Source of the DNA: Bifidobacterium sp.
GTDB lineage: Bacteria > Actinomycetota > Actinomycetes > Actinomycetales > Bifidobacteriaceae
NCBI GenBank assembly: GCA_024104275.1
Contig: JAGGHK010000007.1
Span: 1,654 to 65,653 of the forward strand
Direction: 5' to 3'
Length of the DNA stretch: 64,000 nucleotides
The notes under the pieces are model-generated. The model had not been told where the DNA came from and did not search any database. It worked only from the letters and a program-made list of their open reading frames with translations. Both the position numbers and the translations under genes were made by a program. Numbering within the stretch: position 1 is the stretch's first letter; every line of letters starts with the position of its first letter. Shown here piece after piece: positions 9,502 through 44,410 of this stretch.

Positions 9502-9710
9502 CAACCATCCCTTCCTTCGGTTGCAGCCCCGAATCAGACGAGCGCCGCCTTCCAAACAGATTTCGCGCGACTAACGAATATAAGAGAAGACTCTAGTCGC
9601 CGTCGCTCCCCGCGCAATCCTCGACGGGAAAACAGCACCGCTTCAACACGCTTCCGGTGGTTTTGGCGATGGGTGTTGTGCGTGATGTTTTGTCTGATAG
9701 CGACATGCAT

Positions 9711-9776
9711 TTGACGGATGAAAACACTATAGTAAAATTAAGGTAATCGTAATTACCTTAACTACGATTACCTTAA
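9711..9776 (+). promoter_or_regulatory. promoter with palindromic operator upstream of the ATPase_2/DUF234 gene
   Basis: TTGACG-N16-TAAAAT; palindrome TTAAGGTAAT-CGTA-ATTACCTTAA (9738-9761); second inverted 14-mer TACGATTACCTTAA (9763-9776). Confidence 0.7.
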
Positions 9777-9809
9777 TGATGATTTCCTTATAAGTGCGGT
9801 GGCTGCAAT

Positions 9810-11246
9810 ATGGTGAATGAGAATACGAAATTTGTAGGCAGAGCTAATGAACTTGACGTACTTGAAAATGCCGCTGCGAGGCGTATATTCCAAATGGTCG
9901 TTGTCTACGGCAGACGGCGCATCGGTAAAACTGCTCTCATCGCTCACTTCTGCAAGAACAGACGAACCCTTTGGTTTACGGCGAAAGAGCAAAGCTCGGC
10001 AATGAATCTGCGAGAGTTCTCACAGCAGATTTTCGAGTTTTTCGATGAGCCGGGGTGGCCGGGAGGCTTTCCGAGTTGGTCGACGGCGTTTGAGCGTATC
10101 GCCAAAAATGCGCGCAAGGATTCGTCGCATCCGTTCGTCTTTGTGTTTGATGAGTTTCCATACGCGGCTGCGGCCGAGCCCGGCTTGGCTTCATCGTTGC
10201 AAATCGCGATAGACCATCAGTTTGAAGACACCAACATGATGTTGATTTTGTGCGGCAGCAATGAAGGTTTTATGGAAAGCAGGGTGCTGGGTAGTAAAAG
10301 TCCGCTTTACGGGCGGCGGACCGCGCAGATTCACTTGCGACCTTTCGATATTTTCGACGCTTCCAAACTCATGCCGTCTAACGCTTCCTGGCTTGACCGT
10401 GTCCATTATTATGCGACGTTGGGCGGTACTCCCTATTATCTCAAGCAACTTGATGCATCCAAGAACTTCGAGGAGAACATTGAGTCCTTGTGCTTTAACG
10501 TCGGTGGCATTCTTTATGAGGAACCGATGATGCTCATGCGGCAAGAGCTTCGTGAGCCGATGCTTTACAACTCCGTGATTGAAGCGGTGGGATCAGGCAA
10601 GACCAAGCCCAAAGCCATAGCTGAGCAGGCTGGGATGGATAAGGATTCCGTTAGTGCGTATCTGAGGACGCTGGAGTCGCTGGGATTGGTGGAACGCAAC
10701 GTACCTCTTGGCGAAAATCCTGCACGCTCTCGTAAGGGGCTTTGGACCATTAAAGACCCGTTTTTCGCTTACTGGTACCGTTTCGTCAGCCCGCGCGCAG
10801 GTCTGATCGATATGGGTCAGGGGCATGCGCCCGCCGTTTACGGCACTTCCGGCGGCGTATTCGAAACGTATGTGGGCCAGCAGTTCGAGCGCATGTGCAT
10901 GCAGTGGCTCTTCCAGCAGTCGCGCGAGGGAAAGTTTGATTTCCTGCCCACGTCATACGGCAAATGGTGGGGCAACGACCCGGTCGCCAAGCAGCAGACG
11001 GACATCGACGTGGTGATGGCTGACGATATCAATAAGAAGGTGCTGTTGGGCGAATGCAAGTGGCGCGAATCGTTCAATGTCAACGAGGCCGCCGAAAAGT
11101 TGATTGAGCGCTCGCCGTTGATTACCGAAAAGGGCGAGAGATTGTATTTCCTATTCAGTAAATTGCCGGTTCGCGGCGACGTCCAAGGCAAAACCCGACA
11201 ACTTGGCCCGTTCACTTTCGTCGACGCCGAGACGATGTTCGGATGA
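9810..11246 (+). CDS. archaeal-type ATPase (ATPase_2) with C-terminal DUF234 PD-(D/E)XK-like domain
   Basis: FVGR..EL, Walker A YGRRRIGKT, Walker B FVFDEFP, LYGRRT, DPFFAYWYRF and C-terminal DIDVV...GECKW. Confidence 0.9.
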   Translation: MVNENTKFVGRANELDVLENAAARRIFQMVVVYGRRRIGKTALIAHFCKNRRTLWFTAKEQSSAMNLREFSQQIFEFFDEPGWPGGFPSWSTAFERIAKNARKDSSHPFVFVFDEFPYAAAAEPGLASSLQIAIDHQFEDTNMMLILCGSNEGFMESRVLGSKSPLYGRRTAQIHLRPFDIFDASKLMPSNASWLDRVHYYATLGGTPYYLKQLDASKNFEENIESLCFNVGGILYEEPMMLMRQELREPMLYNSVIEAVGSGKTKPKAIAEQAGMDKDSVSAYLRTLESLGLVERNVPLGENPARSRKGLWTIKDPFFAYWYRFVSPRAGLIDMGQGHAPAVYGTSGGVFETYVGQQFERMCMQWLFQQSREGKFDFLPTSYGKWWGNDPVAKQQTDIDVVMADDINKKVLLGECKWRESFNVNEAAEKLIERSPLITEKGERLYFLFSKLPVRGDVQGKTRQLGPFTFVDAETMFG

Positions 11247-11284
11247 TTGGGATTTCTGTGTTGCGATGGTTGTCGATAGTAACG

Positions 11285-11473
11285 TTAATGCAGGATTATT
11301 AATGTTTCTAATGTCGGATTATTGATGACTCTAATGTAGGATTATCGATATTCCTAATGTCGGATTGTGGCATTCTGTCGATAGGAGAAATGCTGTAATA
11401 TCAACGATTATGGTTTGTTGATCACTTGACAAGTAAAAAATCAACAAATCCTAATGTCGGATTGTTGATGTTT
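11285..11473 (+). repeat. 4 x 23-bp tandem iteron-like array plus a fifth copy at a promoter
   Basis: Units start at 11285, 11308, 11331 and 11354 (core CTAATGTCGGATT); fifth copy at 11451, just downstream of TTGACA (11426-11431). Confidence 0.88.
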
Positions 11474-11483
11474 TTAACGCAGG

Positions 11484-11672
11484 ATCGTGGAGGTCAAGGC
11501 TTCCGGCGATTTCCGTGGGCGGCAGGGCAAAGTCCTGACGGATATCGGCGACGCCCTGGATGTGCCGGATTTCAGCCGGCTGATCGTCTACCGTGGCGAC
11601 GCATCGCAGATGGTGCGCAGGCTCAAAGTCGTCGCCGCCCAGGATTACCTGCGGTTCGAGGACGGGAGCTGA
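11484..11672 (+). pseudogene. C-terminal remnant of an AAA_14/DUF4143 ATPase
   Basis: EVKASGDFRGRQGKVL...YRG...DYLRF aligns without gaps to the C-terminus of 17728-18957 (23/56 identical); in-frame TAA at 11475-11477 shows the gene body is gone. Confidence 0.85.
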
Positions 11673-12018
11673 GCGGGTTGAGACCTATGGCTGCGCATAT
11701 GCCAGAACCCAGATGTGAAGGTGTGCGCAAGGCCGACGGTTGTTTGGCTCGTCGGCCCGCACGCGGTATATGGAAGGGCCTTAGATAACCCCATCGGTTT
11801 CGGTCTGCGGAGTGAAGTCCATGTTGGCCACCGTAAAGCTTCGCAGGTGAAAAGCCTCAACCGACATATCCATTATGCCACAGAAAACAAATCTTGAGGC
11901 TGTCTGCTCCTGGCTTCGTGCCCTCGGCTCCGGTCGGGGGCACGTTTCTCTTTTAGCCGTTGTCGGTGGAGAGGATAGATGCTTGTATGGAATCGGGCTG
12001 GCTCGTCTTGTGGCCTTG

Positions 12019-14903
12019 TCAGTGGCGACTGGCCCAGCGGTTGCGGGTGTGTCGGGTGACGGCCACCACTGCAAGGGCGAGTATGCCTGCGCCGAGGAGC
12101 AGCAGCAGGTTGCGCAGGAGCTGCTCGCGTGTGATGCCGGTGAGCGGTATCGCGGAGACGGGTTCCACCGATGGCGGGAACGTGTAGTTGAAGCCGTTGA
12201 CGATGTACGTTCCCCTTGGGCTGGCGGTGGCGGCGCGGGCGGCGAGGGCGCTGGTGTTGCCGGTCCATGCGGGGCTGGTGATGCCGCTCTTGTCGGTCCA
12301 GGTGTGGTCGGGCATGTTGGTGAAGGCGTTGTTGCCGGCGGCGTTCTTGAGTGTGGTCTTCTTGCCGAGTCTGAGGGCCTGGAGGTTTGCTGGGAACATC
12401 TGGTTCATGCTGGTGGCGCTGCCGGTGTCCCAGCCGTTGAGGTCGAGGGCCTTGAGGTTGGGGTTGTTGTCGAAGACGTAGTGCATGTCTGTGACGTTGT
12501 GGGTGTCCCAGCCGCTGACGTCGAGGCTGGTGAGGTTGGAGAGGTTGAAGGTGTCGCCCATGTCGGTGACCTGGCTGGTGTCGAGGTTCTTGAGCCCGGT
12601 GATGGTGGTGAGGTTGGGGTCCTGCCAGAACATGCCGAACATGTCGGTGTTGCCGGAGCCGTTGAGGTTGGTGACGTCGATGGTCCTGACCTTGGGGAGC
12701 CTGCCGAACAGGAGGCGGCCTCCGGCGTAGGTGGCCTGGCCGGTGTTGGACGCGAGTCTGACGCCGGGCTTGACGGTGGCGGAGGTGACGCTGTCGTCGG
12801 TCCAAGGGACTTTGGTGTCATGGGTGGTGCCGGCTGAGTGGTCGGGCACGGTGCCGGAGTCGAGGCTGAGCACGCATTCCGCGCTCTCGCCCTCGCCGGT
12901 GAGCGTCTCGCTCCAAGTCAGCGTGCCCCAGGTGTGGGTGCCGGGCTGCGTGCACGCCGTCGGGAACGAATAGGAGACGCCGGAGACCACGTACTCGCCG
13001 AGAGGATTGGTGCTCGCGCGCGTAGCCAGTTGGACGGTGGTGCCGCTCCATGGCGGGTTGAGGCTGTCCGGTGGGTTGTGGCTTCCGCTCTTATCCACCC
13101 AAGTGGCGGCCTGGTTGACGTCAGCGAATGCGGCGTTCGGTGACGTGTTCAACAGCTTGGTCTTCTTGCCAAGCCTAAGCGCCTCCAGATTTGGCGGCAG
13201 CATCCCGGTCACGTCGGTAGCGCCCGTGGTGTCCCAATTATATAAATCAAGGGTGGTGAGTTTAGCATCGTTTTGGAACATCCGATACATGCTGTAACCG
13301 GTTGTAACCTTTGCGGTTTCCCATCCACCTATCCCCTTCAACGTTTCCAGGTCAGGACAGTTTGCAAAAAGATAATGCATATCTTCGACGTTTTTCGTAT
13401 CCCAATTGGATAAGTCGAGTTCTTTCAAGCCAGTGGTGTTGAACGAGCCTCCCATGTCTTTAACGGCAGAGGTGTCCCAGTTTTCCAATCCTGTGATTTT
13501 GGTGAGTGATGGATCTTTCCAGAAAATACCGAACAGATCCGTATTCCCAACAGTATATAAGTTGCCCAAGTTGGCAGTTTTGAGCGATGGCAAGGTGCTG
13601 AACAGAAGACGTCCGCCTGTTGGGGCAAGATTGACGTCTTCTTTTACTTCGATATCGATGATACTGTCGTTGACCCAGGGGGTGGGAATATCGTTTGCTG
13701 CGGATGACCCTTGGTGGTCGGGTACAGTGCCGTTGGTGAAGGTGAGGGTGCATTCGGAGAGTGCACTGTCTGGCGTCTCCTGCCAGTCGAGGGTGTGGGT
13801 GTTGTCGGTCCAGTGGTGGCGTCCGGCTTTGGTGCACACGAGTCCCGAATTCTTGTACATGTCGGTCTGGTCAGCGTTAGCGGGTATATCGAGTCCGGGG
13901 TTGCCGATGGTTTTAAGATTGGTGCAGTTCTGGAACATATTGTTCATGTAGACTGCGGCGGCTGTGCCCCAACCGGACAAGTCCAGGGTATTAAGCTTTA
14001 CGTCATTGTAAAACATAAAGCTCATATCGCGAACAGCATCAGTATTCCATTGGGTGATACCGGGCAGTGACGTGAGATTGGGACAATCCCGAAATGCCTC
14101 TTTCGTATCGGTGATGTTCTTGGTGTCCCATTGTTCAAGACCAGTGATTTCGGTGAGTAGTCCGCAGTCGAGGAAAAGCCAGCGTATTGATTTGGTGGTT
14201 GGATTGCTGAGGTCGATGCCGTTGACTTGAGCTGTTTTTAAGGCATGCATGTGAGCGAAGAGGTTGGCGCCGTCCAATGCGACGACGTTGCCAGTGACGA
14301 TGACTTTGGTGACGGTGTACTCTTGGTTGTTTATATGCCAAGGTCCGATTGCCATGTAATTGATGGCGTTGTCAGGTATTGTCCCGCTTTCGAGTTCCAG
14401 CACGCAGTCGTTGCCATCGATGTGCTCGTTCCAATGTAGCGGATCGGTACCGCCGCTTTCTGGCCATTTGTGTTCGCCGGGCTTGGCGCAGGTTACGTCC
14501 TGCGGGCCGACGGCGGTTTTGGCGGGGTTGCCATCGGTTTTCTTTGCGTTGTTGGCTGAAGGTTCCTTGTTGTCGGTTTTCGCTGCGTCGGAGGCTGTCG
14601 GTTTGGTGGTGTCGGAATCTGCTGTCTTGGAAACGTCAGGCTTGGTCTTGCCGGTGTCTTCTTTTGGTGTCGAAGGATTTGTCTCAGTGGGCGTTGAGTT
14701 GTTTTCGCCCGATTCCGTGGTTTTCGGATTCTGCGCAGATTGTGGCTGGGAGGTTATCGCGTTTTCAGCGATTGCGGACGGGGGGTGCTTGATTGTGCGT
14801 TGTCAAGGCCGGATTGCGGTGCGGGGGCGTTGGCGGATAGCAGCGCGAGGGCGGTGAACATGACCGCGATCTTGCCGCCAATACCGTTGTGCCGCAACGC
14901 CAT
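12019..14903 (-). pseudogene. BspA-like leucine-rich-repeat (DUF285) sortase-anchored surface protein, frameshifted
   Basis: AAGGAGG SD and signal peptide from ATG 14903; frame shifts at a C6 tract (G6 at 14780-14785 on plus); downstream frame open 14802 to 12019; three WDT/LDTS-type LRR blocks; IPLTG + TM + basic tail. Confidence 0.85.
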
Positions 14904-15061
14904 TCCGGAGCCTCCTTGTAAAGCCACACCCAACACTGCGTCTAATAAACCATACAAGGTTAAGAATACCGTTTCGACAGTACAACTATGTCTTACGCCG
15001 CGGAATCGTCACAATATGTTCGACTGTGCCGGGAATGCCTCAGCATGACCGGATGTGGCGC

Positions 15062-15361
15062 TTAATCTGAAGCTTGGCCGGCCTTGTGGTTCAGGTAGGC
15101 CATGGCGTTGGCGGCGTTGCCGAACGTCGGCGAATCGTCGGGCACTTTCCCGTCGGCTCTTTCCTGCGCGTATCGCATCGCCTCGAGGGTGGCTTTTCGG
15201 GGGTTGTCGGCGAAGGGGCGCTCGGTGAAGATGCCATCGAGATCATCCATGGTGATTTCCCGATTCGGATGGAGCACCAAACCGATCGTTTCTGGAGTGG
15301 TGTGTGCGTAACTGTCGGAGGTTTCTTCCCCTATGGTCTTATCACCTCGCTGGTTGTTCAT
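15062..15361 (-). CDS. small protein whose C-terminus resembles RelB/DinJ antitoxins
   Basis: GAAAGGGG SD; PF..NP...TLEAM..A..........F....AM..L pattern recalls the DinJ C-terminus; N-terminus not recognised. Confidence 0.5.
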   Translation of the reverse strand: MNNQRGDKTIGEETSDSYAHTTPETIGLVLHPNREITMDDLDGIFTERPFADNPRKATLEAMRYAQERADGKVPDDSPTFGNAANAMAYLNHKAGQASD

Positions 15362-15408: not shown

Positions 15409-15433
15409 AGTTGGTGCAAATTTTGCACCAACT
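15409..15433. promoter_or_regulatory. perfect palindrome (operator or terminator)
   Basis: AGTTGGTGCAAA-T-TTTGCACCAACT, 12-bp arms, ~50 bp upstream of the 15361 start and at the AlbA_2 gene stop. Confidence 0.65.
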
Positions 15434-17045
15434 AGAATTTCTCTGAGCTCTTCCTTGTTGGTGTCGGCAACGTATAACGCGTGGCCGAGCCTTTACCTGT
15501 GCGGCGCAGAACACCGTCTGCGACGAGCTTGCGTAGGATTCCCTTGGCTTTTGTTGGCCCCGAGCCGAGCAATTGTTGTGTTTCAGCCCTGGTGATGTCA
15601 CTGTGTGTGCCGAGGTAGGCAAGTATGATGTCCCGTTCGTTACCTTTCCGAATTTCAGTGTCGATTGATGTTGAAGCAGCCGGAACGGGTGCGGTGGTAT
15701 TGCCATCAAGGTGAGGCAATTGGGCGTCGGTGTCAATGGCGGTGGGAGGCTCCCCGCTATCAGGATTTTGCGCTTTGCTCTTGCCAAGAGGGTGACCCTT
15801 GCCCTCAGCCGCGCTCAAGGTGAACGCAAGTTGTGTGCGGTCTGGGTCGAACGATTCCGTCAACCGGGGGTCGGGAAGGCCGGCCCAATCGCAACCTGCT
15901 CGCATGGCGTCGAAGCCGCTGCCCGCGCGTTCGGCGATGGAGATGAGCGAGAACATCTTCAGCAACGTGGGGTTGCGGGAATCGGAAATGCCGCCGGCCA
16001 TCGCCACGTCGGCGGGGATTCGCAGGCCGCCGGGGTTGGCGAAGGTGATCTTGTCCTTTTGCAGGATGATGACGGTGTTGCCACGCATGTAATAATCGGC
16101 GTGGATGAGGGTGTTGGCAAGCGCCTCGCGCAAAGCCAGGTGCAGAGGGGTGTCGTCGATCCTGCGTGAGTCGGCATTGACCATGAACGGCCTCGGCACT
16201 GCTTGGGTCAGCCTCTGCCAGACGCGCAGCCAGAAATCATAGAGGTTTCCGCTCCATTCCCCATCGCCGCTGACTATTCTGTGGTCCCAACGATTGGTGC
16301 CGTTTAGCTGCTCCCTGTAGTCGAGGAAAAAGTACGGAAATTCGCGCGTAATCATCCATTCCTTGCCGAACATTAGTAGGCCGGCGCGGGTCGGGCGGGG
16401 TTTGTTGCCCTCGCCTTTGGCGCTCGCTCCCAGGCGCAAGAGGAATTCGTCGGTATCGAGTGTGAGCCAGGGGTGGTTGGGCCGCGCGGCGCTCATGGTG
16501 TTGCGGTACGCGTTGACGGTGCCTTGGTTGAGGTCGTCCAGCGAGAATTTTTCAAGCGGCATCTGATCCAGGGTGATGGTGCCGTCGCCTTTGTCTCGTA
16601 CCATCGCGTGGTATTCCTCTTCAGAGCATTGGTAGTCTCCTTCGCCGTTGCGGCGGTAGGTGCCGCCGATGGGGTTGCGGTTGAGATATAGGGGTTTGGA
16701 CTCGCGTTCCGCGCGTGGAACATGGATCACGACTATGGAAGCGTTGTCGACCGGTTCTATCGAAACATCTTCCTCATCAAGCACGTTGGCGCTGACTTTT
16801 TTGCGATCGTTGGCCGTGTCCCAGAAATTTTTCACTATACGTTCTGGGTCTCTTAAACCTGTAGGAATCAGGTTGTGATGCGTGTCTTCGCTGACGCCGA
16901 GCAGGATTATTCCGCCATTAGTGTTCGCGAAGGCGGAGTAAGTTTCCCAGACGCTTTTGGGAACGCCGCCTTCTGCACTCTTCGCTTCAAGGCGGTTGCC
17001 TTCGTGCCAGTGTCTCAATTCTTTGAGATCGAACATGACTGCCAT
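15432..17045 (-). CDS. Schlafen/AlbA_2 domain + HATPase_c_4 (RecG C-terminal-like) + C-terminal HTH protein
   Basis: EGNRLEAK, SAFANTNGGIILLGV, REALANTLIHADY, NPGGL, RNPTL, ERAGSG and C-terminal ITRAETQQLLG...L..LV..G.L. Confidence 0.88.
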   Translation of the reverse strand: MAVMFDLKELRHWHEGNRLEAKSAEGGVPKSVWETYSAFANTNGGIILLGVSEDTHHNLIPTGLRDPERIVKNFWDTANDRKKVSANVLDEEDVSIEPVDNASIVVIHVPRAERESKPLYLNRNPIGGTYRRNGEGDYQCSEEEYHAMVRDKGDGTITLDQMPLEKFSLDDLNQGTVNAYRNTMSAARPNHPWLTLDTDEFLLRLGASAKGEGNKPRPTRAGLLMFGKEWMITREFPYFFLDYREQLNGTNRWDHRIVSGDGEWSGNLYDFWLRVWQRLTQAVPRPFMVNADSRRIDDTPLHLALREALANTLIHADYYMRGNTVIILQKDKITFANPGGLRIPADVAMAGGISDSRNPTLLKMFSLISIAERAGSGFDAMRAGCDWAGLPDPRLTESFDPDRTQLAFTLSAAEGKGHPLGKSKAQNPDSGEPPTAIDTDAQLPHLDGNTTAPVPAASTSIDTEIRKGNERDIILAYLGTHSDITRAETQQLLGSGPTKAKGILRKLVADGVLRRTGKGSATRYTLPTPTRKSSEKF

Positions 17046-17052
17046 CCTCGCA

Positions 17053-17260
17053 TCGGTCGTTTATCGGTCGTGGTCAAAGTAAAAGGCCTTGGACGCGACC
17101 GATATATCGTATAAATAGTAATTGTATCGGTCGTTCGTGACCGATGCGCGACCGATAAAGCGGTATTTGCGTCCGATAACGACCGAGAGTCGGTCGTTCG
17201 CGACCGATACGCGGGAATTTGTGACCGATACGCGGGAATTTGCGACCGATGTGAGACCGA
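17053..17260. repeat. GACCGA/TCGGTC motif cluster with a 21-bp tandem repeat
   Basis: 12 exact hexamer copies in ~210 bp; 21-bp unit G(C/T)GACCGATACGCGGGAATTT at 17200 and 17221, partial third at 17242. Confidence 0.85.
17082..17171 (+). repeat. ~90-bp direct repeat, copy 1
   Basis: AAAGGCCTTGGACGCGACCGATATATCGTATAAA... aligns without gaps to 18918-19007; internal CGACCGATA/TATCGGTCG palindrome. Confidence 0.88.
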
Positions 17261-17533
17261 TGTGCGACGGGTAAACGTGCAGTTGCGTCCGATACGTGAC
17301 AGTTGTGGTGCCGCTGGCGTCGAAGGTGAATTGCGTGGCCCGCCGGGTCTTGGCTAGAACCAACCATGCCCCGATCCAAAAGAATCGGAGGGCGCAATAT
17401 CGGTATCGCCGTGCCATATAGACACCGCCTAAGACTAGGTCGTTGTAGATTTATGGAAGGCGATCGAATGGACCGTTGAAGTGGGGCGTCTCCCCGCCTG
17501 TTAAAAGTAGGTGATTTTGAATGCTCCAAATCG

Positions 17534-17625
17534 CTATGTCAGTGATTTGAAAGTACCTATGTCAGGATTATGGAGATTTCTACATCAGTGATTTGAAAAT
17601 TACTATGTCAGTGATTTGAAATATG
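17534..17625 (+). repeat. 4 x 23-bp tandem iteron-like array upstream of the AAA_14/DUF4143 gene
   Basis: Units start at 17534, 17557, 17580 and 17603; consensus CTATGTCAGTGATTTGAAA. Confidence 0.9.
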
Positions 17626-17727
17626 ATAAGTCATGATTTTGGAAGTGCGGCAAACGCTAAAGAAACGGTTGCCAAGTCGGAGGCCGCACCTAATCGTCAG
17701 ACAGATTGCCAAGTCGAGGAGGGTCAA

Positions 17728-18957
17728 GTGATACCAAGGACGCTTGAGAGCTATACGCGCAAACTGGCGACGTGGTTTCCTGTGGTTTCCGTCACCGGCC
17801 CCAGGCAGAGCGGCAAGTCCACGCTGATTCGTCACGTATTCAAGGACTATGAATATCTCAACCTTGAAGACCCGGAGGTGCGTAGGGCCGCAGCCTTAGA
17901 TCCGGTAGGATTCATCAGGGATCGCCCGGCCAAGCTCATCATCGACGAAGCGCAATACGTCCCCGACCTGTTCTCCATGATTCAGGTGGAATCCGACGAA
18001 CGCAATACGCCCGGGCAGTACATCATCTCCGGTTCGCAGAATTTCCTGATGCTGAAAAACATCAAGCAATCACTTGCGGGGCGTGTGGGCATCATGAAGC
18101 TGCTGCCGCTTTCATTCGCGGAAGCCCAAGCCTCTGAACGTAAGCCGAGTGTCGACGAATTCATGTTGAGAGGTGGCTATCCGCGGCTTTACGACATCGA
18201 TATCAGTCTGGGAACGTATTTCCGCAGCTACACCGACAGCTATATCGAGCGGGACGTCACCGATTACCTTGACGTACGCAATAGCACCGATTTTCGCACG
18301 TTTCTGCGTCTGTGTGCGCAAAATGCCGGGAATCTGGTCAATTACACCGGCATGGCGGACGATTTGGGGGTCAGTTTCAGAACAGTGAAATCATGGTTGT
18401 CGATTCTGGAATCGAGTTATATAACCTTCCCGTTGATGCCGTATTACAAAAGCGTCGGCAAACGGCTTGTCAAGACTCCTAAACTGTATTTCTATGATAC
18501 CGGGCTGCTCTGCAATCTTCTTGGTATCCGCAGCCTGCAGGAGCTTTTGGTGCATCCCAAGCTCGGTGCGGTCTTTGAGAACCTTATCGTTGCGGAGACT
18601 GCCAAGCGTTGCTACAACGCCGGTGAGGAGCCGGAACTTTACTTTTACCGTGACGAGAGCAAGCGTGAGATAGATCTGGTGGATCTGGCTCGGCCTGCCG
18701 AGCCGCTGCTGCTTGAAGTCAAATCTTCCAGGACATATAACAATCGACAAAGCAAGTCGCTTGCGGAAGTGGGCGAGGAGCTTGGCGTGCCCCCGGAGCA
18801 CAGGGCCGTGATCTATCGCGGCAGTGAACAAGCGCAGATGAAGAAGTCGGCGTTGGTGCGGGCGGCGGATTACCTTCGGTTTGACTATCCGGAGGGTACG
18901 CTGCCCGTGGAGGGCCGAAAGGCCTCGGACGCGACCGATATATTGTATAAAAATTAA
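17728..18957 (+). CDS. AAA_14 ATPase with DUF4143 (PD-(D/E)XK-like) domain
   Basis: GAGGAGG SD before GTG 17728; Walker A GPRQSGKST, Walker B IIDEAQ, GSQ, LAGR, GGYP, KTPKLYFYDTG, EIDL...EVK. Confidence 0.92.
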   Translation: MIPRTLESYTRKLATWFPVVSVTGPRQSGKSTLIRHVFKDYEYLNLEDPEVRRAAALDPVGFIRDRPAKLIIDEAQYVPDLFSMIQVESDERNTPGQYIISGSQNFLMLKNIKQSLAGRVGIMKLLPLSFAEAQASERKPSVDEFMLRGGYPRLYDIDISLGTYFRSYTDSYIERDVTDYLDVRNSTDFRTFLRLCAQNAGNLVNYTGMADDLGVSFRTVKSWLSILESSYITFPLMPYYKSVGKRLVKTPKLYFYDTGLLCNLLGIRSLQELLVHPKLGAVFENLIVAETAKRCYNAGEEPELYFYRDESKREIDLVDLARPAEPLLLEVKSSRTYNNRQSKSLAEVGEELGVPPEHRAVIYRGSEQAQMKKSALVRAADYLRFDYPEGTLPVEGRKASDATDILYKN

Positions 18958-28315: not shown

Positions 28316-28445
28316 GTTGCCCGCCATCCGTGCTCTGTTAATGCCCCTAACCGGTCACTAGTGCCACAAGACGTACATTATTTCGATTGAAAACCTACGG
28401 GAGAGGGCGGTATTGACCGGTTTGTGGCATTAAGGATGGTGTGTG

Positions 28446-28531
28446 TCGGGCTGGTTGACGGATGGCCGAGTGGTCGGGGAGGTTGTGTATCGGGCTGGTT
28501 GACGGATGGCCGAGTGGCCGGGGAGGTTGTG
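28446..28531. repeat. 44-bp tandem duplication
   Basis: TCGGGCTGGTTGACGGATGGCCGAGTGG(T/C)CGGGGAGGTTGTG at 28446 and 28490. Confidence 0.92.
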
Positions 28532-31416: not shown

Positions 31417-32673
31417 CTAGATTCCGGCAGCAGCCGCCAGCGCGACGAACTCATCAATGGTCAGCGTTTCGCCGCGTCTCGTGGGGTCAATCCCGGCTTT
31501 TGCGAATGCTTCCGCCGGTACCAGCTTTTTCAGGGCCGCGTGCAGGGTCTTGCGGCGTTGACCGAAAGCGGCATCGACGAGCTCAAACACCTTCTTGCGA
31601 TTGGCTTTCGAGGTAATGGGCGAGGCAGGTCGAGCTGAATCTTTCGTGGATTGCAAGCTTTTTGTATTACTTTCTTCGTCGCCATTAGTAACTTGCATTT
31701 TGCCTGTATCGTGTGGCATTTCGGTTTTATTGTCATCATTGTCATTGCCGTAACGCGTAAATGAGACTAACGCGGAATCGACGTTCGGCGCAGGCCAGAA
31801 AACATTACGGCCCACCAGTCCGACGCGCTCGGCCCGGCCATACCATGCCAGCTTTACACTCGGAGTGCCGTAGATCTTGGAGCCGGGTTTGGCCGCGAGC
31901 CGATCAGCTACTTCCTTCTGTACCATGACTAGAAAATGGTCAAGGTTTTCAAACCGTTCGAGCAGTGTCAGCAAAATCGGCGTCGCCACGTTGTATGGCA
32001 AATTCGAGACCAGTGTAAACGGATTGTCGTTGCAGGCAATGTCCGAGTTACTAGACGATGATTTGGCATTGTTCAGTGACGTTTCGGAAGACGACACACC
32101 ATCACTTGTAATATTTTCAATGGAATTGCTGGGTAAAGTCCCAGATAGCGATGCAGCATTGTTCATATTGTCGGTAAGTGAAGCTGCCCTGGTTTTCGGC
32201 AGAGATGTATCGCAATTATGGTTTCCTGCCGATTTACTCGGCGCAAATGCGGGCAACGTTTCAGGGCTCAGGCTCATGGCATCGGCGGTGACCACGGTAA
32301 GTCGGCCGGCCGCTTCCGGCATGAATTCGGCGATGGTTTCCGGCAAGCGCGCTGCCAGCGCCGGGTCTATTTCCACCGCGGTGACGGCAGCCCCGGTTTC
32401 CAGAAGCGCCAAGGTAAGTGAGCCCAGCCCCGGCCCGACTTCGAGCACTTTAGTATCCGCGGTAACGCCGGCCTCGCGCACAATGCGCCGCACGGTTCCT
32501 GGGTCGATAACAAAGTTCTGCCCAAATTTCTTGGTCGGGCTGATCCCGGCTTCGGCCGCGATCCGCCGGATATCCCCCGCCCCCAACAGATGTCCTGTGT
32601 GGAGCAAACCGCCGGTATCCGTTCTCTGTTCGTTCATGCTTCTCAAATTACTCGTAGGCGTGGCGTGGCTCAT
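31417..32673 (-). CDS. rsmA: 16S rRNA adenine dimethyltransferase with two low-complexity insertions
   Basis: [49 protein letters not shown]. Confidence 0.95.
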
Positions 32674-33941
32674 TGTTTTGCTGTCAGCCAGTCGATGATA
32701 TTGACAATGTTGATGCCGTCTTCGGTGGTTCCGGTGGAAAAATGGTCCAAAGTCAGCACGGTTTTGGGGAACGAGTCGCGCAAAGCCTGCAACGGTGCGA
32801 GTTCGCGGGCGCGAACATCAGCGCCGAGCATGGTTTCCGTGACTTGGAAATATTCAATTTTCTCGTATTTACGTGCTACGAAATCGACTTCGGCTTTCCC
32901 GTCGGTGCCGACCTCCACCTTCCAGCCGCGGCGTAAGAGTTCGTTATAAACTACATTTTCGAGTTGGAAGCCTCTGTCACTATCGGAAAAGTTGGTGGTC
33001 ATGTTGCGTAGACCGTTGTCAACCGGGTAAAACTTCCGCTGTGGGTTCAGCAACTGTTTACCTCTGATTCCCGTTCGAGAAGCCTCGTGGACAATGAGAG
33101 CCTGTTCCAAGGCGGCGATGTAATTATCGACTGTTTCGGATGAGGTCTTTCGTCCGCCACTGGTTAGTGCTCCGACCACTTTATTCGTGGAAAAAAGATT
33201 GCCCGAAGTTGAGAACAGATAAACCACTAAACGGTTGAGTAAAGCGATATCGCGAATGTCGAGTCTCTCGGCAACATCTTTGAGAATGACCGTGTTATAA
33301 ATAGAGTCCAATTCGAGTCGGATGATTTCAGGATCCCAGGAATTCAGTGAGAAAAGGCCGGGCATGCCGCCATATTTCAGATATTCTCCGAACAATGCAT
33401 CATATGATTTGTTTTTTAGCTCCCCTGTCTCGCTGTTGGGATTCAAATCCGCGAAATGGCGAACGAAGCTTAAATATTCCGTAAAAGACAGCGGATAGAT
33501 GTCAATCGTGATGGTCCGGCCTGCGAGTAATGTTGCCAGGTCGCCTGAGAGCAGGCTCGAGTTCGAGCCCGTGATATACACATCGGTGTCTGCCCTGGTG
33601 TGGAGGCCGCGCACGACTCTTTCCCAGTTTCTCACCTCTTGAATCTCGTCCAGAAATACATATGTTTCAGATTCGGGTTTGGTTTTTTTGAAGGCATCGA
33701 GCAGTTCATTGGTTAGGGTTTCCTCGGTTTGGAATGGTGCTTGGCCGAGTTCATCGAAGCGTTTGTAGAAAATGTTCTGTTGCGGGACGCCGCTATCGAG
33801 AAGTTGTTTGCACAGCATGCGCAAGATGGTGGATTTGCCGCAACGACGGACACCTTGGAGTACTTTCACCGGTTCAGTGTTGAGAAAGGGCCGCAATAAT
33901 TCTAGGTACTTTGGCCGGGGTACTTCACGGTCTAATGGCAT
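32670..33941 (-). CDS. AAA_14 ATPase with DUF4143 domain
   Basis: Walker [10 protein letters not shown], Walker [40 protein letters not shown]; ATGA overlap with rsmA. Confidence 0.92.
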
Positions 33942-34034
33942 GTCTGTTCTCCTTGAGCTGCTTTCATTCGAAGACTGGACTAATGATGCAAATGTTTTCG
34001 ACGTAGCTGAAATTATATCATGGAGAGGGTCTAA

Positions 34035-34136
34035 ATTTCAGTTATACCTGAAATATTAAAGTAAAATATGTTAAACTTTCAGTTATAACTAAAATTGAAT
34101 AGTTTAAAGACTATAAGTTTCAGTTACACCTAAAAT
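34035..34136. repeat. 3 palindromic operator-like repeats at 41-bp period upstream of the AAA gene
   Basis: TTTCAGTTATACCTGAAAT (34036), TTTCAGTTATAACTAAAAT (34077), TTTCAGTTACACCTAAAAT (34118); first copy has ATTTCAG/CTGAAAT arms. Confidence 0.85.
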
Positions 34137-34551
34137 TTGATGATGCAAATGGTAAAAATATCAGGTATGACTTACATTTCGTATGATCAATACAGGAATG
34201 CAAATTTATCTGACGCTTTTGGATTCGGGAAGATGAAGTTTTAGATGTAGCTGATACTCGTGATGATAATTAGACGTTATTAATTGTGGCTGGCAGATGC
34301 AACGACGTATAGCGAACAGCGTTCTGCTATAGGCGCTTCCTATGTAATACGCTAATGGTAGCTAATTTGACTACACGCGGAGTTTGAACCGAACTGAATG
34401 CTGATGTCGGCTCGGGCCTCAATCCAAGCGGTTTAGTACCGGCTGCCGTGGCCCGAATACGGGGACTTGCATTGAGAAGTCACTTTTCCATACCGCTGAA
34501 GGGAACGTTGGTTGCAGTTTACGGTTTGAATGCGGATTGAAGCCGCATCGT

Positions 34552-38545: not shown

Positions 38546-38690
38546 GATAAACGGAAACTGATAAACGGAAACTGATAAACGGAAACTGATAAGCCGAAGC
38601 CGCTGGCGGCGGGAATGGGCTTTCAAGTAAAAGCTCTGGCAAAACGGTCTGGTCAAAACGGTCTGGTCAAAACAGTCCGGCCAAAACAGT
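38546..38690. repeat. two adjacent 14-bp tandem arrays
   Basis: GATAAACGGAAACT x3 perfect (38546-38587); CAAAAC(G/A)GTC(T/C)GG(T/C) x3 plus a partial copy (38640-38690). Confidence 0.92.
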
Positions 38691-38739
38691 GTTGCAACGG
38701 GAAACGATAAGTACCAAAACCTAGCCATAAACAACAAAA

Positions 38740-38782
38740 CCGGCGGCGGGTCACGCATAATATCGTGGATCTGCCGCCGGTC
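38740..38782. terminator. terminator hairpin between the convergent dsbA paralogues
   Basis: CGGCGGCGGGTCACG / CGTGGATCTGCCGCCG stem with A-rich and T-rich flanks. Confidence 0.6.
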
Positions 38783-38839
38783 TTTAGGCGCGCACCAGGT
38801 GCGTGAAGCATATGAAGCTCGTGAAGCCGAATCGACTGG

Positions 38840-39799: not shown

Positions 39800-40017
39800 A
39801 TGTCCTTCTTTGTGATTGCAAAATGCTGTCAATCGCCAGTTCGTCCACCGTTATAGCGACTAAAGCAACCAACGTACTCAAATAGACTTAATGCTCTCCT
39901 ATTTTGCACGTATGGGTGGATGAAATAGTCTGAGGGCTAAGTGCTTTGAAACTTTCTTGCAGATATTGCCGCGTTGTCTAAATTTCGACGGCGAAGTTTG
40001 TTGATTTCGAATTTGCA

Positions 40018-42618
40018 TTACAATTGAGGGTTTTGGAGGGGAATCCAGTTGATCTGATGGTTGCTAAAGGCGAGCACGAGCGCCGCAAGCGTCACTATTG
40101 CCCAGATTGTCAAAAACACCCAGTGCCGGGACGAATGGTGTTTGGAGCCTTCGGGGTCGTCCGTTTCATCGTCGAAGTCGTCGATATCGTCTGTATCGTT
40201 GTTTTGGCCCGGTGCGTTTTCGTATCCGTTTTCCTCGAGATTCGGGGAATAGGCTGCATCGCCCGGTTCGGGATAAGCGGATCCGCGCAGCCTGCCGGCG
40301 CCGATGCGCAGCAGCGTGTTTTTCGGGCCGAAAACGATGACCAGCCAGGCGGCGGCCATAAGTATTGCCAGCGATGCGCTCGAATACGAAAGGGAAACGT
40401 CGGCTGGTAGGGGAAGCGGGAGGTGCCAGGAGGCGATGGTCAGGGCGACCATGTGCGTGGGAAGCCCCGAGACCAGGTTCACGACCACTGGGCCGACGCC
40501 GGCGATGACGATGAGGATTAGCACTCGCGGAATGGTGAAAATAAGGGCTTTGAGGATGTGCCAGGGCAGGCTTACCGCACGCAACGCCGGGTCGCCCCCC
40601 TTGCGGATACCGCCGCGGCGTCCTTCGCGTTCGAGCTGTCCTTCCTCGCTGTAGCCGAGCGTCAGAAGGAACCAGAGCAGGGCCGTCGCGCAGCATATCG
40701 AGATTACCGGCATCGAGGCCGAAAACAGCGCGAGTGGAATCGCCAGAAGCCACAGCGGCAGTATTGAGCGGGAAATGAGTTTGCCGCGCCTGATGTCTGC
40801 CGGGTTCGCCGTCGGCTGCGCGACAGGTTGAGCAAGTTGGGCCTGTGGTGATGGGTAGCTTGGCTGCACGTTCGGCTGACCATATATATATGGTGCAGGA
40901 TGCGGGGCTCCGTAAGAGGCGCCTTGGACTTGCTGTTGCACTGCGGACTGAGGGGTTGGCGCGACAGCGAGCGGCATCGTGGCGTCGTTGGGCTGCTGTG
41001 AGGTTTGCGGATTCGAAGAGGGAAGGGACGATGTCTGCTCGAGGCTTTGCGTTATCGGTGCGTTAAGTGGCATCGTGGCGGTGGCATTGGCGTTCGCGTC
41101 GTTGCGGGTCATCGCGGAAGTTGCCGTCAGATCTTGCGGGGAAGGAGTTGGCAAGGCTTCGGTTGCGTTTTCGTCTGAGGTTGAGAAGGCTTGCGCCGAC
41201 CGCGTTTGCGTCGGCTGATTTTGGTTGTATCCGGCCTTTTGCGCTGCCATTTGCGGTTTTGTTGTTGATTGTGTTATCGGCATCGCGCGCGTGGAACCGC
41301 GGATTTGCCGGCCTTGCGGCGTAGAGGGCTGTATACGAGAGGTGCCTTGCGATGAAGCGTTATCAGATTGTGATGATTCCGAGAATAAAGGGGCACTGTC
41401 GGTCCAAGCGGTTCGAGGGTTGCTTGTTGCTGGCTTCCCCGAACCGGGACTCGAATCAGGCCGAGGCGTTTGGCCAAAAGGGGGCACCACCCCTGCGGGA
41501 TTGCCGTGACCATTGGCGCTGTTACCGGTACCGTTATTGGCATTTGTGCCGTAATCGTTCATGTTGTTGCTGCCGCTGCCGAACCCATTGGCTGAGCCGC
41601 TGATATTATCGCTGCCATCCTCATCATCAAGTTCGCCGTTTTCGAACGGATTGAGCGCATCGAGCGTGATGGCCTGCAGCAGTTGGTCGGGGCTGCAACG
41701 TTTCGTCGGGTCCGGGTTGAGCGCACTGCGCAGGGCGTTGAGCGTATTCGGCGGAAGGCCTGCGAGGTTAGCGTTGCCACTGGCCTCGCGCTCGAGCACG
41801 GCCATCATCGGCTTGCTGCCGAAAACCGGCCGGCCGGTCGCGGCGAAGGCGATGACGCTGGCGAGCGACCACCAGTCGGTGGCCTCGTTGCTTTCCGCGC
41901 CGTCGATGATTTCCGGGGCGATGAAGCCGGGCGTGCCCATCACCAGGCCGGTGCGGGTGACGTGGCTTTCGCCGGCGGTCATGGCGATGCCGAAGTCCAC
42001 CAGAACAGGGCCTGCGGCCGAGACCATGACGTTGGTCGGCTTGATGTCGCGGTGGATGATGCCTTGGGCGTGCACCGCGCGGACGGCGTCGATGAGTTTT
42101 GCCGCAAGGCGTTGCAGATCGTCGCCGACGTACCGTCCGTTCGCGGCGACGTCGTCGCGCAGGTTCTTGCCTTCGATCAGCTCCGTGACGATGAAGGCGA
42201 GGGAATCGTCAAGTTCCATGTCGACGATGGCGCAGACGCCGGGATGGTTGATCTTGCGCATGGCCACTGCCTCGCGCCGCATGCGCTCGCGAGCCGTGAC
42301 GTGCGGGTCGTGGTTGCGGTGATGGCGCTGTTGGGCTGTGTTGCCGTCGTGGCTGTCTTGGGCGTCACTTCCATCGGCTCCATTACCGAAGCCTCCAGAT
42401 GCATTGTTGTTCGTGGTGTTGTCGGTCTGATAATCCTGGCTGCCGGTTTCGCCATCGTCTTTGAGCGAATCCCGCAGGATCTTCATGGCGTAATCCTGCC
42501 CGCCGTCGTCGCGCACGCGCCAGACCGAGCCCATCGCGCCGCCGCCCAGCCGCGAGATCAGCGTGTACCCGCCGACAATCTGACCCGGTTCCAGGTCCAA
42601 TGCGTTCAAGTCGCTCAT
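40018..42618 (-). CDS. Ser/Thr protein kinase (Hanks type), membrane-bound
   Basis: GGGAMGSV, AMK, HRDIKPTN, DFG, GTPGFIAPE and DWWS motifs; C-terminal TM segments. Confidence 0.93.
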   Translation of the reverse strand: MSDLNALDLEPGQIVGGYTLISRLGGGAMGSVWRVRDDGGQDYAMKILRDSLKDDGETGSQDYQTDNTTNNNASGGFGNGADGSDAQDSHDGNTAQQRHHRNHDPHVTARERMRREAVAMRKINHPGVCAIVDMELDDSLAFIVTELIEGKNLRDDVAANGRYVGDDLQRLAAKLIDAVRAVHAQGIIHRDIKPTNVMVSAAGPVLVDFGIAMTAGESHVTRTGLVMGTPGFIAPEIIDGAESNEATDWWSLASVIAFAATGRPVFGSKPMMAVLEREASGNANLAGLPPNTLNALRSALNPDPTKRCSPDQLLQAITLDALNPFENGELDDEDGSDNISGSANGFGSGSNNMNDYGTNANNGTGNSANGHGNPAGVVPPFGQTPRPDSSPGSGKPATSNPRTAWTDSAPLFSESSQSDNASSQGTSRIQPSTPQGRQIRGSTRAMPITQSTTKPQMAAQKAGYNQNQPTQTRSAQAFSTSDENATEALPTPSPQDLTATSAMTRNDANANATATMPLNAPITQSLEQTSSLPSSNPQTSQQPNDATMPLAVAPTPQSAVQQQVQGASYGAPHPAPYIYGQPNVQPSYPSPQAQLAQPVAQPTANPADIRRGKLISRSILPLWLLAIPLALFSASMPVISICCATALLWFLLTLGYSEEGQLEREGRRGGIRKGGDPALRAVSLPWHILKALIFTIPRVLILIVIAGVGPVVVNLVSGLPTHMVALTIASWHLPLPLPADVSLSYSSASLAILMAAAWLVIVFGPKNTLLRIGAGRLRGSAYPEPGDAAYSPNLEENGYENAPGQNNDTDDIDDFDDETDDPEGSKHHSSRHWVFLTIWAIVTLAALVLAFSNHQINWIPLQNPQL

Positions 42619-42657
42619 AGTCTCCATACTACTGGTGCGTGCGAAAGTGCTAGGTTG

Positions 42658-44031
42658 CTAATTCCGCAATGACCATTGCCATGCCGGGATGACTTCAATG
42701 TTGCGTTCGTCAAGGTCTATCGCCAAACTGCCTTTTTGCCGTAACGTGATGATGGTTCCTTTGATGTCTTTCATGCGTTTCATCGTGGCTGTAAGGCTTC
42801 TGATTTCCCGCAACCGTGTTTTCTCGTTGTCCATATTCGCAGTGACTTGTATGGCTTGATAAGGTTCTGCCCCGAGCGCGTCGCCAATGACAAAATCGAC
42901 CTTCTCTTGTTTTGCGTCTGGTAGGGTCAAAGAAGTGATGAAATCCGTCCTTCTGCCGGCTTGCCGTCTCTGTAATTCCAGATAAACCGCGGTTTCAAGC
43001 CGTTTTCCAATATCCTGTTGATTTGCGCGCGAGACGGAATATACAAGTCCCGGATCCACTGCGTAGATTTTGGGACTTGCTGACTTGGGCTTTAGCGTTG
43101 TGGTGTATTCCCCCACTTCAAAACAGAGAAACGCCTGTTCCAAAAGGTCGAGGATCGCGCGTGCCTTGGTCCAGTACATTCGGTAACCGAGTCGGTCAAG
43201 CTGGTCGGCCAGGTTGTTTACGGAAAGCTTGCAAGCGGTGTTACGCAAAGCAAAGAGAGCGATTTGGTTGGCGGCGGCAATGTCACCGCTGCCCATGCGA
43301 TCAGCCACATCTCGCGCCACAACGTCACGCATGTAGCTTTGTAACATATCCGTTTTGGCTTCTGCAGGCAGGCTTTGGATACCGGGGAATCCGCCTTCGA
43401 TGAGATATCGGTCGAATGCTGATTCCATCGCCGTTGTGGTTTGTGGGGAGAAGGAGTCCGCGCCGGTTTCCGGAGCCTCCATATTGTGGAATTTACAATA
43501 TTCGCGGAACGAAAGAGGCAGCACTTCGTGCGAATACGAGCGGCCTCGGAAGTTTGTCGCGATTTCTTCACTGGATAGTTTTGAAGATGATCCGGTGACC
43601 ACCATCGTGGCATTTTCATGTTCGGCGATGCGCTGGCAGAATCCTTGCCAATGGTTTGCCTCCTGAATTTCGTCGAAGAAGATGTATGTGCCTTGCTTGC
43701 GTGCCGTTGGAACCTGTCGCCAGAATTCATCAAGAACCTGTTGAAGCGCATCGTCCGGCATCGGCTGCAGGCGTTCATCCGAAAAATTGAAATAGAAGAT
43801 GTAGTCTCGTGGGGTTCCGGCTTTCAGCAGATCCTGGATGAGTTGGAAAAGGTGAAAGGTTTTGCCGCTACGACGCATGCCGACGAGAATATGCACCAAA
43901 TTGAACATTGCTGGTTTGGGCAGGCCATCGGCAATGATCGGCTTGCGTCGAATCGGCATAGGGAATCGGTATTCACGCATTTCGCGTACCAAGGTCGGAT
44001 AATCCGGCGCTGTGGGTGGTGTTGCTGGCAT
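42658..44031 (-). CDS. AAA_14 ATPase with DUF4143 domain
   Basis: Walker A GMRRSGKT, Walker B FFDEIQ, TGSSS, RGR, GGFP, KIYAVDPGL, VDFV...IQV; GAGG SD before ATG 44031. Confidence 0.92.
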   Translation of the reverse strand: MPATPPTAPDYPTLVREMREYRFPMPIRRKPIIADGLPKPAMFNLVHILVGMRRSGKTFHLFQLIQDLLKAGTPRDYIFYFNFSDERLQPMPDDALQQVLDEFWRQVPTARKQGTYIFFDEIQEANHWQGFCQRIAEHENATMVVTGSSSKLSSEEIATNFRGRSYSHEVLPLSFREYCKFHNMEAPETGADSFSPQTTTAMESAFDRYLIEGGFPGIQSLPAEAKTDMLQSYMRDVVARDVADRMGSGDIAAANQIALFALRNTACKLSVNNLADQLDRLGYRMYWTKARAILDLLEQAFLCFEVGEYTTTLKPKSASPKIYAVDPGLVYSVSRANQQDIGKRLETAVYLELQRRQAGRRTDFITSLTLPDAKQEKVDFVIGDALGAEPYQAIQVTANMDNEKTRLREIRSLTATMKRMKDIKGTIITLRQKGSLAIDLDERNIEVIPAWQWSLRN

Positions 44032-44065
44032 ATGAACCTCGATTGATGGCAAAAGTAGATAAGCA

Positions 44066-44124
44066 AACTTCTGAATTATTTTAAGAAGATTATATCATAA
44101 CTTCTAAATTATTTTTAGAAGATT
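44066..44124. repeat. two palindromic operator-like repeats at 33-bp period upstream of the AAA gene
   Basis: AACTTCTGAATTATTTTAAGAAGATT (44066) and AACTTCTAAATTATTTTTAGAAGATT (44099); CTTCTAAA/TTTAGAAG arms. Confidence 0.88.
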
Positions 44125-44410
44125 GACTTGATAGATAATCGAGTTCGGGTCTAGAAGGTGCAACGCATAAAATGTGCATTTATGCAAATGGTCTCCGATG
44201 TATTCCTTCGCAAAACGTGCGCTGAAAATGACAGGCTGAGTGCAACGGCGGAAAATCGTGGGATGGGCAGACACAATGAAGATGAACATGAATAGGCATT
44301 ATCGTCGTGCAATTCGATGATGGGCAACACCGCCCGCAAATTGCGTATACGGTTTTGGCAGAGCTGTTGAAGCCGTGATTCATGGACGAGTAAGTAAAGG
44401 AGGACTCATC

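Follow-up and report, generated by a model that had tools for sequence, protein, structure and literature searches.

The DNA analysed here, a 64,000-nucleotide stretch of Bifidobacterium sp. contig JAGGHK010000007.1 (the window), contains four intact solitary genes encoding AAA+/winged-helix/PD-(D/E)xK-fold proteins, which we term G1-G4, plus one C-terminal remnant, each with its own array of repeated DNA sites. This arrangement, proposed in a first-pass annotation of the sequence, is confirmed by Pfam and PADLOC matches and by repeat analysis. The array observation is general and extends across phyla, with each subfamily having its own array architecture. Our preferred explanation, which we consider reasonably probable and the most likely of those weighed below, is cooperative autorepression, in which an Orc1-like AAA+/winged-helix protein would act on private operators. 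The gene calls rest on Pfam and PADLOC hidden Markov model (HMM) matches, and the promoter calls are consensus matches only; the features are as follows.

9711-9738, + strand: G1 promoter-like site, TTGACG, 16-nt spacer, TAAAAT (10/12 matches).
9737-9791, + strand: G1 operator array, one inverted and three direct ATTACCTT-type sites, 15-bp period.
9810-11246, + strand: G1, ATPase_2, winged helix-turn-helix (wHTH) and DUF234 domains, D..E-C-K, 478 amino acids (aa); PADLOC PDC-S27.
11286-11377, + strand: orphan 23-bp iteron array of the remnant, 4 units, TAATGTCGGATTATTGATGnnTC.
11452-11497, + strand: two extra 23-bp units, abutting the remnant open reading frame (ORF).
11484-11675, + strand: remnant of a G2-type DUF4143 protein, its last 62 aa (IVEVKAS...).
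17534-17648, + strand: G2 iteron array, 23 bp x 4.7, CTATGTCAGTGATTTGAAAnTTA.
17728-18957, + strand: G2, AAA_14, lid, wHTH and PD-(D/E)xK domains, D..E-V-K, 409 aa; PDC-S01.
32670-33941, - strand: G3, AAA_14, wHTH and nuclease-fold domains, Q-V-T variant, 423 aa; PDC-S01 (8.9e-143).
33991-34179, - strand: G3 operator array, five sites, 41-bp period.
34012-34041, - strand: G3 promoter-like site, CTGAAA, 18-nt spacer, TG-extended TATAAT (TGaTATAAT).
42658-44031, - strand: G4, AAA_14 and DUF4143 domains, Q-V-T variant, 457 aa; PDC-S01 (1e-90).
44066-44091 and 44099-44124, - strand: G4 operators, two 26-nt palindromic sites 33 bp apart, CTTCTnAA-TTATT-TTnAGAAG.

The G1 sites, all of which lie between the -10 element and the start codon, run in the order TTAAGGTAAT (inverted), ATTACCTTAA, ATTACCTTAA and ATTTCCTTA; the first-pass annotation had placed this array correctly, and the nested palindromes that it described are better seen as the one inverted and three direct sites given above. 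It recognised four of the 23-bp units of the remnant and missed the two at 11452-11497, and for G3 its 41-bp period stands, with five sites in place of three palindromes, i.e. three strong TTTCAGTTATAACTGAAA-type palindromes at 34034-34137 and two degenerate sites at 33991-34014 and 34155-34179. The two G4 palindromes with their 33-bp period were found as described, and the 23-bp arrays of G2 and the remnant indeed have related cores (G2 unit 2, CTATGTCAGGATTATGGAG, compared with the remnant unit, CTAATGTCGGATTATTGATG). Within the 64 kb, each core is confined to its own array, with 2-4 matches observed versus 0.00-0.03 expected from shuffles. One 12-mer at 53166-53177 matches the G1 site exactly; by eye it appears to be in coding sequence (minus strand), and it is taken as chance. 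A generic repeat test was applied to 19 window ORFs with intergenic upstream DNA, from which a simple ORF filter had removed G1 and G2; only the remnant, G3 and G4 scored clearly. Chance or low complexity as the source of the arrays is rejected by the shuffle expectations together with this test.

Relatives were drawn from plasmids and viral contigs as well as from genomes and metagenomes. One genome per species was scanned by alignment for G2 relatives, which gave 80 loci, and inspection of the 300 bp upstream revealed direct repeats in virtually all of them. Three or more copies of a 16-mer are present upstream in 22 of 23 non-redundant G2-type loci, with 3-8 direct 23-bp units and a spacing of exactly 23 bp in 59 of 62 spacings; of 107 control upstream regions taken at the same loci, 2 have regularly spaced triples. 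These arrays are found in Bifidobacterium, Collinsella, Atopobiaceae, Actinotignum, Trueperella, Fibrobacter and a Nomurabacteria metagenome-assembled genome. G3-type genes (80 metagenome loci) have 2-6 palindromes of ~20 bp, mostly 39-42 bp apart, distant members having a single palindrome abutting the -35 element. G1-type genes (53 IMG/VR loci and three genome loci) show two layouts, i.e. 10-12-bp sites with ~15-bp spacing right after the -10 element, or long palindromes centred on the -10 element. The layout of G1 itself recurs with a different site sequence in homologues L225, L174-L185, L189 and L227, and a B. dentium G1-type homologue has perfect 22-bp palindrome arms around TGTATAAT with the -10 element at the centre. 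No close relatives of G4 were obtained, and its 33-bp architecture is known here from G4 itself; palindromes or direct repeats are also seen around the promoter in most of eight plasmid homologues, all of <31% identity (from Sulfuricurvum, Calditerrivibrio, Bacteroides, Lactobacillus, Acinetobacter, Moraxella and two methanogens). When viral contigs were scanned with G1 or G4 as the single protein, no match was obtained.

Over the three families, a generic statistic (based on 14-mers in the 150 bp upstream that recur, in direct or inverted orientation, within 60 bp and with no more than 2 mismatches) is positive for 79 of 100 family genes; among intergenic controls 45 of 172 are positive (odds ratio 10.6, p = 1e-17), and among shuffles ~20%. 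Among the outcomes that the first-pass annotation had named as counting against it are that most homologues lack arrays and that arrays are equally common upstream of unrelated genes; neither of these was observed, regular arrays being present at 22/23 G2-type loci versus 2/107 controls and the generic statistic likewise separating family genes from controls.

Some of the loci surveyed have further repeats. In the Calditerrivibrio plasmid (L215, ~180-260), about ten tandem (T)GAACGTT octamers lie upstream of the PDC-S01-type gene, which also has a palindrome over its -10 element. The sole two control genes with regular upstream triples (L005 2052-2726 and L080 1910-3283; 22-bp and 33-bp periods) may be further private-array genes. 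A candidate extension lies in the window itself, where 10 exact GACCGAT/ATCGGTC heptamers plus degenerate copies occupy 210 bp (17052-17261, - strand) directly upstream of a fifth solitary gene, of SLFN_AlbA_2 + HATPase_c_4 composition (COG2865 type; 15432-17045, - strand); in the whole window this heptamer has 18 matches versus 10.4 expected. One homologue of that gene, in L222, has CCTATAACCCA twice upstream, 42 bp apart. The heptamer cluster suggests that the 'gene plus private array' design reaches beyond the AAA-nuclease families.

When the 23-bp units of 22 lineages are set in one common register, positions 3-5 and 11-17 (A-C-T ... A-T-T-A-T-G-G) are conserved across all lineages, positions 6-10 carry almost no information between lineages while agreeing at 86-93% within an array, and positions 19-23 vary within arrays too (64-75% agreement). 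Three tiers of this kind match a site with a shared core, a specificity patch particular to each lineage and an unconstrained spacer, and they argue for binding sites rather than slippage products, because recent duplication alone would leave all positions equally uniform. As the first-pass annotation anticipated, array sequence tracks protein phylogeny (iteron distance vs protein distance, Mantel r = 0.52, p = 2e-4). The recognition helix of the G2 family is near-invariant (T-V-K-S-W-L-S-I-L-E-S-S) except for its first two residues, 217 and 218 (2.9 and 3.2 bits), which at the helix N-terminus are the most variable positions of the helix-turn-helix (HTH); in raw mutual information, residues 217 and 218 versus iteron positions 9 and 6 rank top, a ranking from which no claim is drawn, given the permutation-scored control described below.

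Comparison of individual relatives gives a similar picture. The G3 orthologue of Bifidobacterium sp. ESL0728 (75% identity), at the same rpf-like/ksgA site, has six GTGTCAGGTATAACTTACAC-type sites with outer half-sites GTGTCAG..CTTACAC, versus TTTCAG..CTGAAA in the window. Eight units are present at a G2 homologue of 70% identity; at a G1 homologue of 68% identity the 15-bp layout is retained and the sites are TTATATTAAT. Paralogues within one genome differ in site, both in the window and in L225. The divergence of site sequence with protein is thereby supported, among orthologues at one site and among paralogues in one genome, and site specificity evidently follows the gene rather than the host. 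Three Collinsella loci at the same chromosomal site (L035, L037 and L045), the proteins of which are at least 97% identical, have 3, 4 or 5 iterons; because unit number differs among such close strains, iteron arrays evidently expand and contract on short time scales.

By consensus promoter matches, the putative cognate sites overlap the core promoter of the gene that they precede. In G1 the array sets in with the last base of the -10 element; the G3 -35 element lies within palindrome P3, and the degenerate site P4 covers the stretch just downstream of the -10 element; and the G4 palindromes flank the TGATATAAT extended -10 element (44097-44089), a 'site, -10, site' layout that is shared by the Lactobacillus plasmid homologue L218. 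In the Fibrobacter and Nomurabacteria G2-type homologues the -35 element is carried, by eye, by the last iteron. In many actinobacterial G2-type members only 10-35 bp separate the last unit from the start codon, and the promoter must therefore lie within the array. These positions favour a repressive function as judged from the predicted promoters. A search of RNA sequencing data for transcription starts found the window sequence in DNA-like runs only and, for the Collinsella locus, only fragmentary contigs, from a wastewater RNA-labelled run and from assemblies of unrecorded library type.

Copies in unrelated contexts have only array and ORF in common. Homology between them sets in at the array or promoter, 41-143 bp upstream of the start codon, and its 3' limit falls in the range from 25 bp short of the stop codon's end to 56 bp beyond it. 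Because homology stops at these limits, 'gene plus cognate array' is supported as the unit that would be inherited and transferred, in line with the self-contained one-gene cassette of the first-pass annotation. The genes adjoining G2, G3 and G4 are unrelated housekeeping genes, and G2-G4 stand alone. A G1-family cassette on an IMG/VR contig (L163) is flanked by an imperfect ~25-bp direct repeat (2360-2390 and 3950-3985; aggaggGgatgcgtatggGctacaa / aggaggAgatgcgtatggActacaa) that spans a ribosome-binding site and a gene start, and which could be a recombination scar or a target duplication. The G3 cassette sits within a conserved rpf-like/ksgA pair, its stop codon overlapping the ksgA start in an ATGA (32670-32673), and the same overlap occurs in Bifidobacterium sp. 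ESL0728 (L222 5260-5263). Because the cassette lies inside this pair in both species, ksgA may be transcribed from, or through, the putatively autoregulated G3 promoter.

The protein assignments are strong, G1 matching ATPase_2 (1e-23) and DUF234 (4e-21; both Pfam, above cut-off) and PDC-S27 (4.3e-61), and G2 matching AAA_14 (1e-26), DUF4143 (1e-45; both Pfam) and PDC-S01 (5.7e-100). An IclR/MarR-like HTH occupies residues 258-297 of G1. The G2 start is a GTG with GGAGG at 17728, which matches homologues of 385-400 aa, the ORF itself being open from 17623. The remnant has 39% identity to G2 residues 328-386 and keeps E-V-K, ~327 N-terminal residues having been deleted. The PD-(D/E)xK signature is present in G1 (D398/D400 ... 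E415-C-K417) and G2 (D309/D316 ... E330-V-K332), and is invariant or nearly so in the alignment; G3 and G4 have E-V-D-F-V-A then Q-V-T, with the lysine absent. The D..E/QxK motif that the first-pass annotation ascribed to the whole family is thus correct for G1 (D..E-C-K) and G2 (D..E-V-K) and incorrect for G3 and G4. In the G3 subfamily T, S, C, A or V stands in place of the catalytic lysine across 20 aligned sequences, and the nuclease fold of G3 and G4 may lack activity, or a lysine located elsewhere may serve it.

G2 and G3 were modelled with good confidence by AlphaFold (predicted local distance difference test, pLDDT, 86.7 and 87.7). Both models predict an AAA+ domain followed by a helical lid, then a winged-helix HTH and finally an alpha/beta nuclease-fold domain; neither has a sensor domain. 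Foldseek searches with the G3 model return first the archaeal ATPase_2 proteins SSO1545 and PAB2304, next Orc1/Cdc6 on origin DNA (2qby_B, E = 4.4e-8; 2v1u, E = 7.6e-7), and then ORC, DnaA (1l8q), RuvB, RFC and STAND/NLR proteins, whereas the top matches of the G2 model are Apaf-1, PAB2304, RPP1, MalT, ORC and Avs4, with ORC/Cdc6 at E ~1e-4. An Orc1/Cdc6-like AAA+ plus winged-helix fold is recovered, with template modelling scores (TM-scores) of only 0.2-0.35, and the G3 model fits the initiator/clamp-loader AAA+ group better than STAND proteins. PDB and NCBIfam sequence searches gave no characterised relative.

Alongside what the analysis shows, namely the cassette structure, retained array architecture, site/protein divergence, overlap with predicted promoter elements and predicted protein fold, we infer that the encoded protein is the binder and that repression is the effect. 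Each gene would be an autonomous one-gene cassette of promoter, operator array and ORF, its product being an Orc1/Cdc6- and STAND-like AAA+ nucleoside triphosphatase (NTPase) followed by lid, winged-helix HTH and restriction-endonuclease-fold domain. The winged helix would read repeated sites that overlap or flank the gene's own -35 element, -10 element or transcription start; regular spacing (23 bp head-to-tail in the G2 type, ~41 bp between dyads in G3, 33 bp in G4 and 15 bp in G1) would place several protomers on the same DNA face, where they could oligomerise through their ATPase domains. Occupancy would turn off transcription, giving tight cooperative negative feedback on a potentially toxic ATPase-nuclease, and site and reading head would diverge together, such that many paralogues per genome could be insulated from each other.

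Several results weigh against cooperative autorepression or against parts of it. By the generic statistic ~20% of homologues have no repeat. Many G2-type arrays lie upstream of or over the -35 element, which would fit activation too, and in some loci (the L052 group, L005 and window G2) the array is 70-200 bp from the start codon. With respect to the reading head, Mantel correlations are similar for all four protein domains, and by permutation z-scores the winged-helix columns covary with negative-control spacer positions at least as strongly as with specificity positions. The lack of the catalytic lysine in G3 and G4 means that 'toxic nuclease' may not fit them.

Among the alternatives, we regard it as rather unlikely that the array, beyond any operator role, is a DNA ligand that seeds an ORC- or STAND-like oligomer and so licenses the protein to act, for instance by cleavage or remodelling of same-address DNA, by exclusion of incoming cassette copies, or as a locus-bound 'poised' complex that is freed on infection. 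Three palindromes (six protomers) or 3-8 head-to-tail units would match AAA+ ring or spiral sizes, the fold comes closest to that of origin-bound Orc1/Cdc6 and of STAND proteins activated through oligomerisation, a separate sensor domain is absent, and the 3, 4 or 5 units of the near-identical Collinsella proteins are compatible with such a ligand. However, the Collinsella-type G2 consensus array (two-unit pattern) was not found in 2.9 million viral contigs scanned, extra core copies are absent from elsewhere in the window, self-cleavage at the own locus would require an unexplained safeguard, and plain autoregulation is a simpler account of the data. A more far-reaching proposal, which we consider distinctly unlikely, is that the proteins are 'addressed' AAA+ machines, each paralogue having a private address and the array assembling an Orc1-like oligomer. 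Were it true, the own array would be both operator and anchor or reference, and the protein would bind, and cut or silence, any other DNA of the same address, e.g. a copy of the cassette arriving by plasmid or phage; this would amount to a sequence-programmed, protein-based exclusion system, and would explain both the rapid turnover of specificity and the missing sensor domain.

The arrays might instead be cis elements read by another factor, i.e. host-factor sites, stacked promoter elements or slippage 'contingency' switches, to which the differing unit number between strains, the TAnnnT-like hexamer (TATGGT) in many G2-type units and the lack of a domain-specific covariation signal all lend some credence. 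We judge this improbable: sites differ among paralogues of one genome and travel with the gene across phyla, where a host factor would not follow; palindromes in the G3, G4 and G1 families imply a dimeric sequence reader; and the lineage-specific positions are constant within arrays. Control at the RNA level, by transcribed palindromes that form hairpins in the 5'-untranslated region and govern stability or translation, seems highly improbable, even though the palindromes of G1 and B. dentium lie at or after the -10 element and could fold (a 19-pair stem was found on the opposite strand), since the direct repeats of the G2 family and of many G1-family members cannot form hairpins and G3 sites are mostly upstream of the -35 element. 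Very unlikely too is the first-pass suggestion, which gained no support, that the cassettes are mobile or selfish units, with iterons that resemble transposon ends or origins and on which the protein would load in order to move or replicate them. Tightly bounded cassettes are indeed found on plasmids, in IMG/VR contigs and in unrelated contexts, the L163 copy has its flanking repeat, and 22-23-bp iterons are typical of plasmid origins. Yet Tn7/Mu-like ends were not found, the arrays being only 5' of the gene, with no second end or second core copy, and the conserved unit stopping at the stop codon; that unit includes no transposase, integrase or Rep protein; and no identical multi-copy insertions were seen. 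Because the G3 orthologue occupies the same chromosomal site in another species, vertical descent is indicated for G3. With respect to origins, five arrays lie within 35 kb, and cumulative GC skew, a weak test, rises near-steadily with no switch at any array and with small dips near 36-38, 48-50 and 60-62 kb.

COG1373/PDC-S01 and COG1672/PDC-S27 are among the most numerous uncharacterised genes of bacteria and archaea, and a conserved, paralogue-specific array would hand every member a predicted DNA sequence to bind, i.e. a first testable DNA target. If cooperative autorepression is correct, these proteins would be sequence-specific DNA binders built like replication initiators, which would constrain models of their action. 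The arrays may also be of use in annotation, where they mark cassette boundaries and true start codons and flag decayed copies, as with the orphan array at 11286-11497.

With respect to its setting, the window has a GC content of ~0.58, its closest homologues are from Bifidobacterium sp. ESL strains, and its other genes include those for MurJ, DUF6049, NUDIX, CCA-adding enzyme, KsgA, a G5/DUF348 protein, a Ser/Thr kinase and GH3 enzymes; from these neighbours, GC content and homologues it is evidently a Bifidobacterium-like chromosome. The GH3 glycosidase gene that adjoins G4 (44375-47293) has a GC content of 0.43-0.50 versus ~0.58 for the genome and was probably acquired horizontally. A 44-bp unit is repeated 2.1 times with 95% identity at 28440-28531, in the divergent intergenic region between the NUDIX and CCA-adding enzyme genes, and between a pair of DsbA-like thioredoxin genes there are two arrays with 14-bp tandem units:

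38546-38592: 14-bp tandem array, GATAAACGGAAACT x 3.4, perfect.
38635-38687: 14-bp tandem array, TCTGGTCAAAACGG x 3.9.

All four proteins give strong HMM matches to PADLOC PDC-S01 (AAA_14 + DUF4143, COG1373) or PDC-S27 (ATPase_2 + DUF234, COG1672), with which they share a single-gene organisation and the fusion of an ATPase to a PD-(D/E)xK-superfamily domain; those names are unvalidated candidate labels without mechanism. PDC-S01 ranks fourth by frequency among the 'defence' types called across prokaryotes, with ~39,000 PDC-S01 and ~8,000 PDC-S27 calls in ~48,000 genomes (PMC12988326), and DUF4143 and DUF234 have been classed as PD-(D/E)xK members of 'unknown' function (PMC3424549). The literature searched contained only one published phage-protection test of S01 and S27, in E. 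coli B versus T4, T5 and T7, in which they were not among the four candidates reported to protect. A role in defence against foreign DNA, which we infer, is a candidate one that has the PADLOC label only as its basis. The same literature, to which subscription journals are external, makes no mention of cognate upstream arrays for PDC-S01 or PDC-S27.

Controller (C) proteins of restriction-modification systems are HTH proteins that bind operators at their own promoters and limit nuclease expression; they are small, separate Xre-type regulators, whereas here regulator, ATPase and nuclease fold would be combined in one polypeptide. The initiators of iteron plasmids (RepA, TrfA, pi) bind 22-23-bp direct repeats as winged-helix monomers, repress themselves and have variable repeat numbers. 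Plasmid Rep proteins have tandem winged-helix domains and neither ATPase nor nuclease, and this Rep fold was not found in the proteins studied here, which have AAA+, lid, one wHTH and a nuclease fold; iteron-like direct repeats are moreover a property of the G2 subfamily only, with no replication context found. STAND NTPases (MalT, Avs), which are top Foldseek matches of G2, have a similar NTPase, helical and winged-helix core and act by oligomerising, but G2 and its relatives are much smaller and have no repeat or sensor domain, and the TM-scores are low (0.2-0.4). Orc1/Cdc6 with its origin recognition box (ORB) repeats and DnaA with DnaA boxes have repeated cognate sites adjoining their own genes, and assemble on them in a cooperative, nucleotide-dependent manner. 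The likeness of G1-G4 to these initiators lies in an AAA+ module joined to a (winged-)helix DNA reader, with fold matches to 2qby_B, 2v1u and 1l8q. The differences are that the arrays bear no sign of an origin by GC skew (a weak test), that G1-G4 have an extra C-terminal nuclease-fold domain, and that many paralogues are present per genome, each with a private site that is placed on its core promoter.

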